Shown here in pieces: positions 262 through 56,548 of a stretch of DNA of 64,000 bases; position 1 is the first letter of the stretch, and the number at the start of each line of letters is the position of its first letter. The notes beneath the pieces were generated by a model. The model saw only the letters and a program-made list of their open reading frames with translations, had not been told where the DNA came from and did no database searches. This stretch comes from Octopus vulgaris (Eukaryota), in contig OX597821.1 of assembly GCA_951406725.2 (NCBI GenBank), forward strand, positions 56,172,001 through 56,236,000, written 5' to 3'. Both the position numbers and the translations under genes were made by a program.

Positions 262-1186
262 ATTAGAGTTACAGAATACTTCTTGCTAGAAATAGGAATC
301 ATCACTCTAAATCCACAAATTTCTCATTGTTTTATTCATCTATTTTTCAAAATAGTCATTTCATTTTGTTCATGTGAATGCCCCAGTGACATTCAAAAAC
401 GAACATAAGGTGAGTCAGTACAATATACAATTTAATAAAGGATTATTACCATTATTATTATTATTATTATTATTATTATTATTATTATTATTATTATTAT
501 TATTATTATTATTATTATCATAACGTGGCCTGCAAGCTAGCCTATATAGGTAAAAATATACGAATAAATAAAGTAGCCTACCGGAATAACACTTGCTGCA
601 AAATAGGAGTCAACACTGCAAATCCACAAATTTCTCACTTTTAAGAAGTACACACAGTGAATGTGACGAATATAATAAATATAGTCTTTACCTTCTATAA
701 ACTACAAAGCAAGAAAGATATCTTGGTATCAACTGATCTCACCTCCGTACTTTAGTACTTAATGATTCTGGTACCCTACTTTATTTATTTGTATATTTTA
801 CCTATTTATGTTCACTTGCTCGTCACTTTATTATTATTTTTAATAATGATATTAACACTTTATTAAATTTTATATTGTACTAACTCAATTCATGTTCGTT
901 TTTGAACGTCGCGAGGGCATTCAGATGAAGAAACGCGCACAGTGTAATGAAATGAATATTTTGAAAAATAGCTTAGCTGATGATCCTTAAGTACTAACGT
1001 ACAAAAAGTGAAATCAATTAACCAAGATATCTGTTCTTGCTTTGTGGTTTATACAAGGTAAGGCCTATATTTATTATATTCGTCACATTCACCGTGCGTG
1101 TTTCTTAACAGTGAGAAATTTGTGGATTTGTAGTGTTGACTCCTATTTCTAGCAAGTGGTATCCCGGTACTATATTTTATTTATTT
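262..1186. mobile_element. Head-to-head pair of a ~396-nt hammerhead-bearing PLE/retrozyme-like monomer
   Basis: ~560-769 is the diverged reverse complement of ~980-1186 and ~345-580 of ~775-970; the plus arm starts and ends with ggtac..ta.tttatttatt (770 and 1166). Confidence 0.75.
972..1026 (+). ncRNA. Decayed type I hammerhead ribozyme
   Basis: cttag-CTGATGA(977)-stem II with gtac/gtac-GAAA(1010); consensus with the mirror copy gives GAAA-TCAATTGA-TA-CCAAG. Confidence 0.6.
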
Positions 1187-1701
1187 GTTTATTCTACATA
1201 TACAGGTTAATGCGGTGAGGCTCGGCTTTCCACAGCTCAGCCCATGTCGCTTTCCTCTCAACCGCATTCTCCCATCTTGTCCATACTCCCCGTTGCTTCG
1301 TTTCCACTGCCTTGCATGTTCTCACCAGAATCGTGATAATTTTCAACTACTGACAGCAAACATATATATTTGCACATATGTATACATATATAAAGGCACT
1401 TATAAGTGAAAAAAAATGTGGGACAGAAACATGTACAAACAAGCATATTTAAAGCATACATGCATTCGTTTTCCAATTTTGACCATCAAAGAAGAAATTA
1501 CTGGAATCTTATTTAATGAATGTTATTGTTTGTGATAATTCCGGGAAGCTGTAATATATTCTCATTGAACTAAGCCAGAATCAAATTTTTGATGAAGTGC
1601 CATGACTCAACCTAAATTGTAATTAGTTGTGAGTTGAATGTTGGGCTAGTTTGTCCGTAATTCCACTAGGATCCTTACAACACATGGCAGCTATATCGTG
1701 G

Positions 1702-1736
1702 AACAGGTTCAACTTCTAATAGAAGTTGAACCTGTT
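1702..1736. repeat. Perfect 17-bp palindrome with 1-nt spacer
   Basis: aacaggttcaacttcta-a-tagaagttgaacctgtt. Confidence 0.9.
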
Positions 1737-4700
1737 AAAAGGTACATTGCATCTTTGCAAATAAAATTAACATTTAGTCGTGTAAGGCATAAACCAATTG
1801 ATTTGAAATTCGTATACCGCTTCTGGCATTGTGATGTATCTTAAAACAGACACATTCGTGATCTTGTCAAATTAATAGCAGCTGTTATTGAAATAAATAC
1901 ATTATCAAAAGAGCCACAGAAGCGACACAATGTAGGCGTATTTTGCTGCATTTAGCAGCAAAATACATGCATAATGGAAATCCAATGGCATGAGTTTTTT
2001 TGTCTTCTATCATAATTCTATTCTGACGTAGGGTGTCAAATAAACACATTAACTCGAACTCAATACTTCACTATTATGTTATATCATCGCTCCGGTAAGG
2101 GAAACGAAAAAGTTAACCCGGAAGGATTCGAAAATAGAGTGTAAAGGGCTGTAACTAAATACGCTCTAACGATTCCGATAATTATCACCTTGCCCTTAAA
2201 TCAATTCTGCCAATCACCCCGTCACTACTATAAAGGAAAAATACAATTCAGTTAACACAAAGGGGAGGAATAGTCGAGACAGCAGAACGCGAGACAGAAT
2301 GCTGTAGTGTATCTAGTACGGTACCTCACTCTTCCGAGTTCATATCTCATTTGGGTCGTTGATTTTCACAACTCTGTTGCCGATAAAATGAATACCAGTT
2401 TTATACTGAAGTCGATTCAATTGGCTATAACTTGTCCCCTACAAAATCGGTCTCGTACCTAGTCAAAAGAAATTAATATCAGTCATTGTAACACTGCAAA
2501 TCCTATTTATTCAAAATACGCTATTTTATAAAAGGTTTTATTTGCATTATGAATTAAGGTTTGTGCGCATTATTTCCTTATGTATCGACAATAACACTCG
2601 AAGATTGATGCTTGCATATGCACACGAACGCACCCACCCACACGTCCACACACATGTATATATATATATATATATATATATATATATATATATGTGTGTG
2701 TGTGTGTGTGTGTGTGTGTGTGTGTGTGTAGATAGATAGATATACATACGAGAAAACACGGCGCGAATAATACATAGACAGATCTAGTTTCTTTGGAATT
2801 CATTTATCTCGAGATGCAATGGAGTTTTTCACCATTGCTCAGTTATGACTTCAGTTGCAGGCAAAATACATGAGAGGAAGACGTCTTAAATGATTTTGCT
2901 GCCATTATTCTCCGTGAAATTGAAGTGACGTTTTCAGGGCACAATACTGGCCGGACTGTGTGGAGATCCATGATTGTCCAGATATCAGAATCTCCCTTAC
3001 AGCCTTGATGGTGTAGTCCAAAGGAGAACAGAACAGCACCACTTGAGAACGCTTAGTTGCAGAAATTTCAGGAAAAAGTATTAAATTGAACACCAAATCA
3101 CTATAAGGCTTTCCTCTGGATTTAATACGAGATTCATTCACGAGGCTAATTTGTTGTAACTGGGAATCAGTAACACTGGCCAGGGAGTCAAGTAGGTACA
3201 GTCAACACTAGCCAGGTGTGTCATAACTTATCTGAAATAACTTATCTGCCAAATTTTGTCAATTTTCAAAGGAAATTACTACTAGTTACATTTGAAGTCT
3301 TCTTTGAGCAGTCAGACGTCAGTTTACTTGGAAAGAGACAATGTAGTTATTAATAACGAGAGTAGACATTAACTCATGAACGATTTCACAGCTCTAGCAA
3401 AATTCCATCAAAGACTGCTTATGAACATTACAGCCCACCCTCGTACGTACGTACATAGACAGATACACGAGCATATGTATATGTGCATGTGTGTGCGTGT
3501 GTTCGTGCATGCGCGCGTGTACAGATATAAATATATATATGTTTGTGCGTGTGTGTGTGTGTATACTCCAGACCATAGAATACATTTTAAAATGGTAAAA
3601 CTTTCAGTTGGTGCAAAAAAAAAATTAATATTTCTAACCATTGCAACAGAATGCTTTCGAAAGTTCATAATTTTTATTATTGCATAACAATAATTCTATA
3701 TGTTTGTTCTTAGCCACGCCAACATGCACAAGATATGTTTAATGTTTGTGAGGAATACGAATAAGAAAGGAAGTCGAGGATAGATGTAATTGACTCTAAT
3801 TCCGAGCATCAATGAGAAGTTCTTCAACTGAAAGTTTAATAAGTTACTTTTATTTTTGTCAGATGCAAATTAATACTAGTGGAAATGATATAATCTGAAA
3901 TGTCATTATGTGCATTCTTCATTTTCGAATTTGATATCTAAATAATGGTATTTTCTACGTAGCGGAGGCGGGTGTTAGAGAGAAAATGGCAAACTTCTTG
4001 AGATTCGTGATTCCATCTGCCTTTGATTCTCAGTAAAAGATTAAAATGTGGCTCATACAATCTTTCCTCATTGTATTTAAACCATCAAAGCTCCTGGAAA
4101 GATATGAACGTCTAGATATTGTATTCCTCTTCTCCTAAAATAAAACATCTACATGTTTGTGTGTGTGAGCGCACGTGTGTGTACGTGCGTGTGGTATTAC
4201 TGTGTTCGTGTCTGCGTTTACTTTCAAACTGGTCTAAATAACGTTGTTGTTTACATTCTGTAGTATAGCACTTGGACAAATAAAGATAGAAATAAATACA
4301 GGGATGGGTACAATTTAATAAAATCTCTGTTGTTGGTATCTCAGATTGTTGCTGTTTGATGTCGAAACCAATAAACGAATAAAACATAGGAAAGAACTAT
4401 TTCTAAGCACTTTGTTTAGGATTAGAAACGTTTCGGCGCCGGATTAATAAGCGGAAGTATTTCATTTTTGTTCTTAAACAGCGTGAATTCAAATTTCGTG
4501 TGTCTTGAATATGTAGATTCAGTCGAGCGTGAGTGCGCGTGCAGATGTTTGTGTGAACATAAGCAGTAAACATACAAACGTCCAGTTCAAGTATTTCTCC
4601 GTAGATTGAATAAGTTGAAGAGCCTTAATCGATTTTCGACACATTTTGGGGTCTCAAGAGAGACCAATCCCACAAGTAGCCAATCCATTTGTATACATAT

Positions 4701-55400: not shown

Positions 55401-55889
55401 AATGACGGTGTTTAATATCAATGTCTACAAAACCTTCCCACGTAATTTATTGAATAACATATAAGAAATAGAAACGAATAAAAGGTATGTAGTTATGAAC
55501 GCTCATATATTAGGTCCATCTTTAATAGAAGAAAGAAAATCACTTCGCTTTTAATCTGTCACATTTGCTTTTTGCTTGTCACTCAAACTCTCTGTTAAAT
55601 ACATAGGCATGCGCTCACACAAGGAAAAACAATGGAAATATTTAAAATGATGACAAAGAAATCGAGATGTAAGTATACGCGCGTGCGAGAGTATAATTGC
55701 TTATATGCATCTGCAGGATCACTTTCCACATCTGTATATAGCTGGAAGCTAAATATAACTGTTTTAATCACATATTATCTGAACAGGCAACGCAAGCTGT
55801 CAGGATCACGAGTAATACAAAAATAGCCAAATTCACTTCTAGATCTCACCTTGTGATTTTCAGATGTTTTTTTTTTATTTCCTCATTAC

Positions 55890-56160
55890 TGAGCAAGCTT
55901 GAGAGTGGATTTGGTTGACGGAAACAGAAAGAAGCCCGTCATATGTATATATGTATGTATGCACCTATGTATGTGTGTCTTTGTGCCTGTGTCCTTCTTA
56001 TTCCCCACTTGACAACCAGTATTGGTATGTTTACGTCCTCGTAATTTAGCAGCTCGGTAAAAGTACAAGTCTTAGGGTTGATTTCTGCGACTAAACTCTT
56101 CAAGGCGGTGCACCCGCATAAACACAGTAAAATGACTGGACCAGGTGAGAGATAAAGTAT
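55890..56160 (+). mobile_element. Diverged family A SINE fragment (others near 14290-14630 and 38400-38520)
   Basis: gagtggatttggttgacggaaacagaaagaagcccgtc matches family A. Confidence 0.78.
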
Positions 56161-56321
56161 AAAAGATAAATGCTATAAGGCTTTAGCATTCCTAACAACT
56201 CGAAGGATTTGCTAGGGTTGAAATTGATCCAATAGTAGAGACCTTATTAAATAGATACTACACACAGACTTTTATACACGTACAGAAACACACACACACA
56301 CACACATATGTATACATATAT

Positions 56322-56548
56322 ATCACGTGACCGACGAGACTAATAGATGTTGTTACACATCGTTGGCGATTTTTATCCTCTGTCTTCCCTTCTCTGGATC
56401 TTTCCTTCTCCTATGTTTCCGACGAAGAGCTTCGCTCGAAACGTTAAACCCTCCTTCTTTCCTTCTTTCCTAAGCGTCCAATAATACTATATTTGTTTCC
56501 TCGCGTTGTTGTGATTTTTTTTTGTGCTTTCCCGTTTGGATTAACTTT
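56322..56548 (+). mobile_element. ~230-bp hammerhead-bearing non-autonomous element in (TA)n
   Basis: Bounded by TA repeats; pyrimidine-rich body around the ribozyme fold. Confidence 0.65.
56415..56449 (+). ncRNA. Minimal hammerhead, U4C variant
   Basis: gttt-CCGACGA-a-gagc ttc gctc-GAAA-cg-TT-aaac; palindrome AACGTT. Confidence 0.72.

Follow-up and report, generated by a model that had tools for sequence, protein, structure and literature searches.

Minimal type I hammerhead ribozymes in the pseudo-long terminal repeats (pseudo-LTRs) of Penelope-like elements (PLEs), their dimers and a U3-A8 variant of their core have already been published (PMC4209133; reviewed in PMC6765202). Here we describe such motifs in a 64,000-nt stretch of the Octopus vulgaris genome (contig OX597821.1, positions 56,172,001 to 56,236,000), referred to below as the window, which has a G+C content of 33% and is rich in microsatellites. 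A sequence-only reading had named ten hammerhead sites there and proposed five or more unrelated families of small elements, mostly in inverted-repeat settings, forming a ribozyme mobilome driven by PLE reverse transcriptases (RT) and unannotated as RNA. The repeats at these sites fall into seven families (A-G; family letters A-J are our own labels), each with a minimal type I hammerhead and a palindromic stem III. We put at about 0.72 the probability that the window holds truncated end-pieces of seven families, three tied to PLE RT genes and four likely mobilized by such genes, each with a minimal hammerhead predicted to cut its parent RNA as a stem III-paired dimer. Two of these families have a swapped core pair: C carries A3-U8 and E carries G3-C8. 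Both were absent from the earlier reading and are the part that may be new.

The closest described counterparts are the hammerheads of PLE pseudo-LTRs (Cervera and De la Pena 2014, PMC4209133). Like those of the octopus, they are of type I, with a short stem I and a palindromic stem III that requires a dimer; they form many families per genome, mostly as solo truncated copies, and they include pairs on opposite strands 100-700 bp apart, noted already in 2014, as well as the U3-A8 variant of our family H. An unpaired base after A9 and a G10.1-C11.1 pair recur in D, E and F. Unlike the published set, C and a related family, J, carry A3-U8, E carries G3-C8, and stem II is only 2 bp in B, C and J. 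The 44 alignment rows of the published supplement hold C3-G8, U3-A8 and one U3/G8 combination, with no purine at position 3 and no cephalopod-like genome among them. PAc, a Poseidon PLE of the green anole, also shares a terminal-repeat hammerhead, AT-rich targets and reverse transcription that starts internally and leaves a tail (PMC11167929). Its open reading frame (ORF) starts within the hammerhead, an arrangement not seen for B or C. The C3G/G8C double mutant engineered in PAc, which partly regains cleavage, is the swap that occurs naturally in family E (PMC11167929).

Natural core variants described by Perreault et al. 2011 (PMC3088659) give precedents for U3-A8, U4C, U10.1-U11.1 and a 2-bp stem II and cover most oddities of families A, B, C and D; natural G3-C8 and A3-U8 are not named in the accessible parts of that paper. 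Within our literature search, G3-C8 was met only as an engineered variant (PMC11167929; PMC3884650). That search returned no natural purine-3 core, Lunse et al. 2017 and Arkhipova et al. 2017, which could contain such cores, lying outside its scope; among the matches listed, none had an A3-U8 core and none dealt with octopus Penelope hammerheads. A squid genome paper mentions, in the part accessible, 235 Rfam hammerheads, and the accessible text of a 2026 octopus repeat annotation contains neither the word hammerhead nor ribozyme (PMC13282606).

Each named site was used as a query against the 2.80-Gb assembly, and 25-30 copies were aligned per family. Similarity-search samples are the best 40 candidates per query and are biased toward window-like copies; exact-match pattern searches give whole-genome counts. 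The core (paired 3-8, G12-A13-A14-A15.1, U16.1-H17) is present in the majority sequences of A, B, D, E, F, G, H and J, and in that of C apart from one extra base. Stem I spans 4-6 bp and stem II 2-5 bp, and stem III is palindromic in every family, with predicted self-duplexes of -0.2 to -13.6 kcal/mol. The 3-8 pair is C3-G8 in B, D (33/33 copies), F (36/38), G and the old family A (12/24), U3-A8 in H (16/16), A3-U8 in C (23/31) and G3-C8 in E (84/89). Thus, all four Watson-Crick 3-8 pairs occur in one genome. More than 10 further hammerhead families with distinct palindromes lie in the flanks of the loci studied; a Watson-Crick 3-8 pair is present in almost all of them, and a single case, seen at two loci, reads U3/G8, in line with the diversity the earlier reading had expected (bystander families flank L017, L020, L036, L060, L078, L118, L141, L145, L192, L212, L247, L262, L294 and L338).

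Chance expectation was gauged with a type I hammerhead descriptor in which the 3-8 pair was left free. Set for stem I of at least 4 bp, stem II of at least 3 bp, a palindromic stem III and any Watson-Crick 3-8 pair, it matched 168 times in 918 kb of loci and 1-4 times per 918 kb after shuffling (5 shuffles); the former count reflects which loci were chosen and is not a genome-wide enrichment. In the window, a strict setting gave 2 matches against a mean of 0.125 in 40 shuffles, and one of the two, at 24296, looks like chance. A relaxed setting gave 9 positions against a shuffle mean of 2.4 (maximum 7); only 4 of the 9 are named sites, and neither site 977 nor family C was picked up. Given these counts, the window evidence is modest on its own, and the case is carried by the family alignments. 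The stem II region of family G, at more than 40 nt, exceeds the descriptor's initial limit. Rfam returned no hammerhead among 150 of 169 matches listed for the window and none in 51 rows for 14 loci, its matches being only microsatellite-driven microRNA look-alikes; within these listings no curated model recognizes the motifs, in agreement with the expectation that they are unannotated as RNA.

Three of the seven families, B, C and F, reach RT/GIY-YIG ORFs, and what had been taken for small elements are here the ends of autonomous elements of ~3 kb. Family B is a young, Hydra-like PLE. All 41 scored matches, among 1,511 candidates, are 99-100% identical; copies are truncated stepwise from the 5' end, in a staircase, and the longest reach 3.2 kb. 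One locus (L203) has 735 open codons, the first ~60 contributed by flanking microsatellite, and the protein has 2,052 relatives at E<=1e-10. Its RT and C-terminal GIY-YIG endonuclease were recognized by motifs and relatives, and it has the DKT, CxxC and CxH motifs by which Craig et al. 2021 (PMC8557442) describe the Hydra clade, a group of C-terminal EN+ PLEs. Members of that clade share with B an element length of ~3.2 kb, a single ORF, CxxC and CxH around conserved E and N, (TA)n targets, a hammerhead, and an inverted 5' copy and tail; B resembles the clade by these motifs, and the clade's CxCX5C linker is complete in neither of two translated B copies, each with two of the three cysteines. 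Sites 977, 23562 and 40215 had been assigned to one family. The latter two are indeed subfamilies of B (81% identity over 101 nt), and 977 belongs to the unrelated family A. The B features are as follows.

22178..23699, plus strand: family B insertion, 5'-truncated young Hydra-like PLE ending in (TA)n.
22178-22345: inverted copy arm of B, preceding the sense part.
22394-22489: last ~32 codons of B, followed by a long 3' untranslated region (UTR) and the terminal repeat.
23558..23595, plus strand: intact B hammerhead with 4-bp stem I, canonical core, 2-bp stem II, GNRA loop, a 9-nt odd palindrome as stem III, and A17.
40211..40248, plus strand: intact hammerhead of the older B subfamily, with C3-G8, C at position 4, 3-bp stem II and one palindrome mismatch.

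Decayed fragments of another Hydra-like PLE ORF, with 31-37% identity to the B protein, lie at 49455-50180 (minus strand). An inverted pair at 21715-21958 and 26649-26873 (84% identity) encloses the B and C insertions and perhaps represents the ends of an older DNA element.

The window copy of family C is the 3' end of an autonomous PLE. Pfam placed GIY-YIG above the cut-off, the window piece included, and RVT_1 at 28.2 bits, below its cut-off of 29.6. At one locus (L213) direct terminal repeats, each with the motif, flank the ORF, and an inverted copy is present too. Both C hammerheads proposed at 24500 and 25610 proved intact against the family majority.

24358..25791, minus strand: family C insertion.
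24680-25393, minus strand: endonuclease region of C.
24358-24679, minus strand: sense terminal repeat of C.
25463-25791, plus strand: inverted copy of C.
24496..24535, minus strand: C hammerhead of the sense copy, with 5-bp stem I, A3-U8, 2-bp stem II, a long palindrome and U17.
25607..25646, plus strand: C hammerhead of the inverted copy, built like that of the sense copy except that stem II includes one G-U wobble.

The A3-U8 reading is awkward from family C alone because an extra base follows G12. Family J, a related PLE first seen at L264, has a clean hammerhead geometry. C and J share the core and the 2-bp stem II, and their stem I and palindrome differ entirely. A pattern in which the core columns were fixed yielded 859 exact A3-U8 matches to J in the genome versus 0 for a control pattern. 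Full stems and palindrome were present at 21 of 30 J loci, and at 11 of the 30 the motif lay behind a same-strand GIY-YIG. Two pairs of J stem I are changed on both sides, in 5 cells, as expected of compensatory change; with kinship ignored, the count of cells was reached by 0 of 500 shuffles and the number of pairs by 33 of 500.

Family F is a Poseidon-like PLE. In the window it is left with its terminal repeat, a trinucleotide tract and a portion of a tRNA-like segment. At one locus (L161) broken RT and GIY-YIG frames were found upstream by translation and tblastn, with a junction common to L155 and L172. At 38580, read earlier as a remnant, the 3' strand survives and the family is canonical; the 5' core is destroyed.

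38575..38905, minus strand: family F, 3'-terminal remainder of a truncated Poseidon-like PLE with destroyed 5' hammerhead core.

The tRNA-like segment of the F 3' UTR (window 38859-38905, minus strand) lies upstream of the trinucleotide tract and hammerhead and was seen at L152, L153, L155, L157, L161, L165, L172 and L173. By eye it has box A and box B look-alikes, and it could yield a sub-element driven by RNA polymerase III; neither ARAGORN nor Rfam called it.

A supply of PLE enzyme exists, judging from a Pfam GIY-YIG search of the genome that gave 148 matches among 6,136 candidates, many in a young family with a 781-codon frame. This is family H (L250, L255 and many further rows), a young PLE with many intact 781-codon frames followed by the U3-A8 hammerhead, and a candidate source of active enzyme.

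The G3-C8 core belongs to family E, an element of ~197 nt that starts ~20 nt before stem I and has a fixed 3' end. It has 1,461 exact matches in the genome, and 93 of the first 100 listed are G3-C8; one copy reads A3-U8, which may be chance. Of two hammerheads proposed for the window, that at 52234 is intact and that at 52283 has changes at G5 and U16.1.

52199..52245, minus strand: intact E hammerhead with 5-bp stem I, G3-C8, an unpaired base after A9, G10.1-C11.1, a 6-nt palindrome and U17; the family's 5-bp stem II is weakened here.
52278..52324, plus strand: second E arm, broken, with G5 and U16.1 changed.
50965..53412, no strand assigned: 2.45-kb non-coding repeat carrying the E fold-back as a passenger, interrupted at ~52326-52455 by a short interspersed element (SINE).

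The SINE has a short target duplication. The 2.45-kb repeat, which may be Helitron-like, has a hairpin near one end and has captured and amplified the E fold-back. A second non-coding host carries E within its inverted repeats at 6 of 20 loci, and part of E's copy number is therefore passive. A second, very young composite element (94-99% identical; L334, L335, L342, L350, L351 and L352) combines ~2-kb inverted repeats that include E with a ~105-nt tandem array. We rejected a reading of E as the inverted ends of a coding element of ~2.8 kb, as the pairs reflect E riding in the second non-coding host. Four contig sets, guessed to be RNA, span E's ~197 nt with opposite-strand joints and no go-back joints; they are uninformative on expression, ends or circles.

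This setting, with a near-perfect palindrome in the window copy, raises the question of whether E is a fold-back or miniature inverted-repeat (MITE-like) DNA element whose likeness to a G3-C8 hammerhead is coincidental. That neither a parent ORF nor a second G3-C8 family was found would fit. When a single arm was used as query, however, only 12 of 30 copies were fold-backs, and their variable inner junctions, fixed 3' end and (TA)n targets are as in PLE insertions. Coincidence is further opposed by a descriptor chance rate of ~3 per 918 kb, or ~0.0006 per 200-nt element, and by stems I and II predicted at probabilities of 0.89 and 0.99. The unpaired base after A9 and the G10.1-C11.1 pair, features of the published consensus (PMC4209133), lie outside the descriptor and are present in E as well. 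We consider a DNA-element origin of E very improbable and retain E among the likely PLE products.

Family A is old, with ~75-85% identity between copies, and non-coding. At 6 independent loci, sequence that follows the hammerhead turns up again ahead of it, offset by 396-419 nt, and only partial tandems were observed. A U-U mismatch occupies 10.1-11.1. At 977 the core heptamer is kept and a 2-nt deletion runs through U16.1; the 10-nt palindrome quoted for this site has 0 matches in the window and equals the family A majority.

262..1209, plus strand: insertion of family A, in which a sense copy of the circularly permuted, non-coding unit of ~410 nt is accompanied by inverted 5' pieces.
972..1026, plus strand: hammerhead of A with an intact C3-G8 core; the 2-nt deletion disrupts stem III.

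For family D, 1,291 genome sites match the 5' end exactly; 0 of 30 such loci share more than ~15 further upstream bases. The hammerhead proposed at 56419 is intact against the family majority.

56361..56547, plus strand: family D, an element of ~190-230 nt inserted in (TA)n; its 5' limit is fixed, and no ORF was found.
56415..56449, plus strand: D hammerhead with 4-bp stem I, C3-G8, C at position 4, 4-bp stem II, a 4-nt palindrome and U17.

As a non-coding, AT-rich, permuted unit of ~410 nt with one type I hammerhead, family A is reminiscent of metazoan non-LTR retrozymes (PMC7229834; bioRxiv 10.64898/2026.07.22.740005), whose tandem or permuted units of 150-400 nt hold one hammerhead each and which have been proposed to be PLE derivatives (bioRxiv 10.64898/2026.07.22.740005). 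The short families A, D, E and G might, then, all be retrozymes that spread via self-cleaved circular RNA copied for more than one round by a PLE enzyme, and the ORF-less A would fit that description. Published retrozymes, however, form long tandem arrays with canonical hammerheads (PMC7229834), whereas A is scattered as partial tandems, accompanied by inverted 5' pieces and bearing a minimal hammerhead, and no long arrays were present among the loci read. D and E have a fixed 5' limit, unrelated flanks and no permutation. For A alone the chance that it is a retrozyme falls just short of even; its extension to all four short families is quite unlikely, and mobilization by PLE genes remains our preferred account of these four families.

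Family G reaches the window only as a piece. Site 15260 had been read as a hammerhead remnant; the window copy ends ~55 nt downstream of the family's hammerhead, and none is present. The guess that its family bears a hammerhead was right for the wrong reason, since 18 of 25 longer copies reach one ~55 nt upstream, with an intact core, by eye, in 13 of 25. Overall, six of the ten named sites keep the family core, two are broken, one is wrecked and 15260 lacks a hammerhead altogether.

15186..15500, plus strand: fold-back of family G with a 3' tail; its 5' truncation falls ~55 nt downstream of the position of the family hammerhead.

Side features of the window, recognized by eye, are Mariner-type transposase fragments at 7143-7688 and 13649-14080 (both plus strand) and LINE-like reading-frame fragments at 19001-19957 (minus), 41755-42102 (plus) and 61822-62103 (plus).

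The prevalence of inverted repeats is explained by the mode of insertion. PLEs have been described as targeting (TA)n and as bearing a tail on one side and an inverted copy that is truncated at its 5' end (PMC8557442). Families B, C and F have 5' truncation, a partial tandem or inverted 5' copy, a tail and microsatellite targets; A, E and G have a fixed 3' end, an inverted 5' copy and (TA)n; D has fixed ends and (TA)n with few inversions. By eye, an inverted 5' copy is present in ~10 of 30 genome copies of B, 9 of 30 of C, 13 of 25 of F and 12 of 30 of E (single-arm query), and almost never in D; fold-back queries for E and G overstate the frequency. In the window, A, B (at 23562), C, E and G sit in inverted repeats; none was seen for D, F or the 40215 copy. 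Such repeats are the inverted 5' copy that Penelope insertions usually leave. They are an insertion by-product (PMC8557442) rather than a part of the ribozyme, and the hammerhead of an inverted copy cannot be a dimer partner because it lies on the opposite strand. Read-through RNA of an inverted pair would instead bury the motif in duplex. PLE drive of the mobilome has direct ORF links in B, C and F. For A, D, E and G we infer it, as these families behave like PLE products, though no parent was found.

Several results count against this interpretation. With B and C proteins as tblastn queries, no attached RT/GIY-YIG ORF was found at 30 loci of A, 60 of D, 80 of E or 50 of G (the few unlinked matches around such loci lie at least 600 nt away), the ORF link of F comes from 1 of 25 loci, and the B protein has no Pfam or PDB match. 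Stem II of young B is closed by an A-A mismatch at 10.1-11.1. Family C has one extra nucleotide in the G12-A15.1 strand; Perreault et al. (PMC3088659) report a 1-nt insertion in the G12-A14 strand, but that of C follows G12 rather than A13. No convincing second G3-C8 family with a 6-nt palindrome was found (6 matches versus 2 for the control), so the G3-C8 core rests on one family without compensatory stem changes, and the dimer helix of E is predicted at just -0.2 kcal/mol. Cleavage by published PLE hammerheads is weak (PMC4209133). That of the lizard element required protein, and no RNA-seq reads end at its cut site (PMC11167929).

Some of the adverse evidence would also suit motifs that are inherited but no longer catalytic, either as riders of the terminal repeat or as protein-binding structures, with 3-8 swaps keeping the fold rather than the activity. 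A C subfamily of 8 of 31 copies with an unpaired A3/C8 has been amplified (L079-L082, L084, L087, L089 and L090), and 32 of 33 D copies read C at position 4, which is reported to reduce activity (PMC3088659). Whereas predicted monomer folding favors the hammerhead stems in E, F, J and older B, D and A alone barely fold as hammerheads (stem I probability 0.03 and 0.01, respectively), and insertion of the lizard element proceeds in vitro without cleavage (PMC11167929). Against a loss of catalysis stand the core and paired 3-8 kept in more than a dozen sequence-unrelated families, the double-sided changes in J stem I, and the membership of the 3-8 pair in the active fold (PMC3088659). On balance we regard a loss of catalysis as unlikely and favor hammerheads that would cut the parent RNA as dimers.

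We propose the following course for PLE mobilization. An active parent would be transcribed from a tandem copy, and two hammerheads, carried by one RNA or by separate RNAs, would pair through their palindromes, probably with help from the element's protein. That protein would nick AT-rich DNA and reverse-transcribe the RNA, starting at a fixed position that lies 100-200 nt, or further, behind the hammerhead; premature termination and strand switching would yield short 3' fragments, many of them joined to an inverted 5' copy. The majority of copies in the genome, those of the window included, are likely inert leftovers. By inference from internal priming in the lizard element (PMC11167929), D and E are likely solo terminal repeats copied from the first repeat of a parent transcript, or short non-autonomous derivatives. 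Family A would be a permuted unit resembling a retrozyme. Parent lineages likely retained the 3-8 swaps because an active fold can be supported by any Watson-Crick pair there.

Collectively, the earlier observation is partly confirmed and its interpretation partly supported, the whole amounting to a known system in which the core variant is probably new. A bolder proposal, which we hold somewhat less likely than not, is that A3-U8 (859 exact copies, endonuclease-linked) and G3-C8 (1,461) are the first natural purine-3 hammerheads, dimer-active and invisible to every published descriptor, implying an overlooked ribozyme class across animal genomes. The swapped cores, if shown active, would extend the known natural range of the hammerhead, and if natural A3-U8 and G3-C8 cores hold true, searches restricted to a pyrimidine at position 3 would undercount eukaryotic hammerheads. 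With families that differ in their 3-8 pair, an amplified subfamily that lacks the pair, and family B, which is very young (copies 99% identical) and keeps a long open frame, the octopus genome presents a natural experiment, and thereby a direct test of whether cleavage is selected in PLEs.

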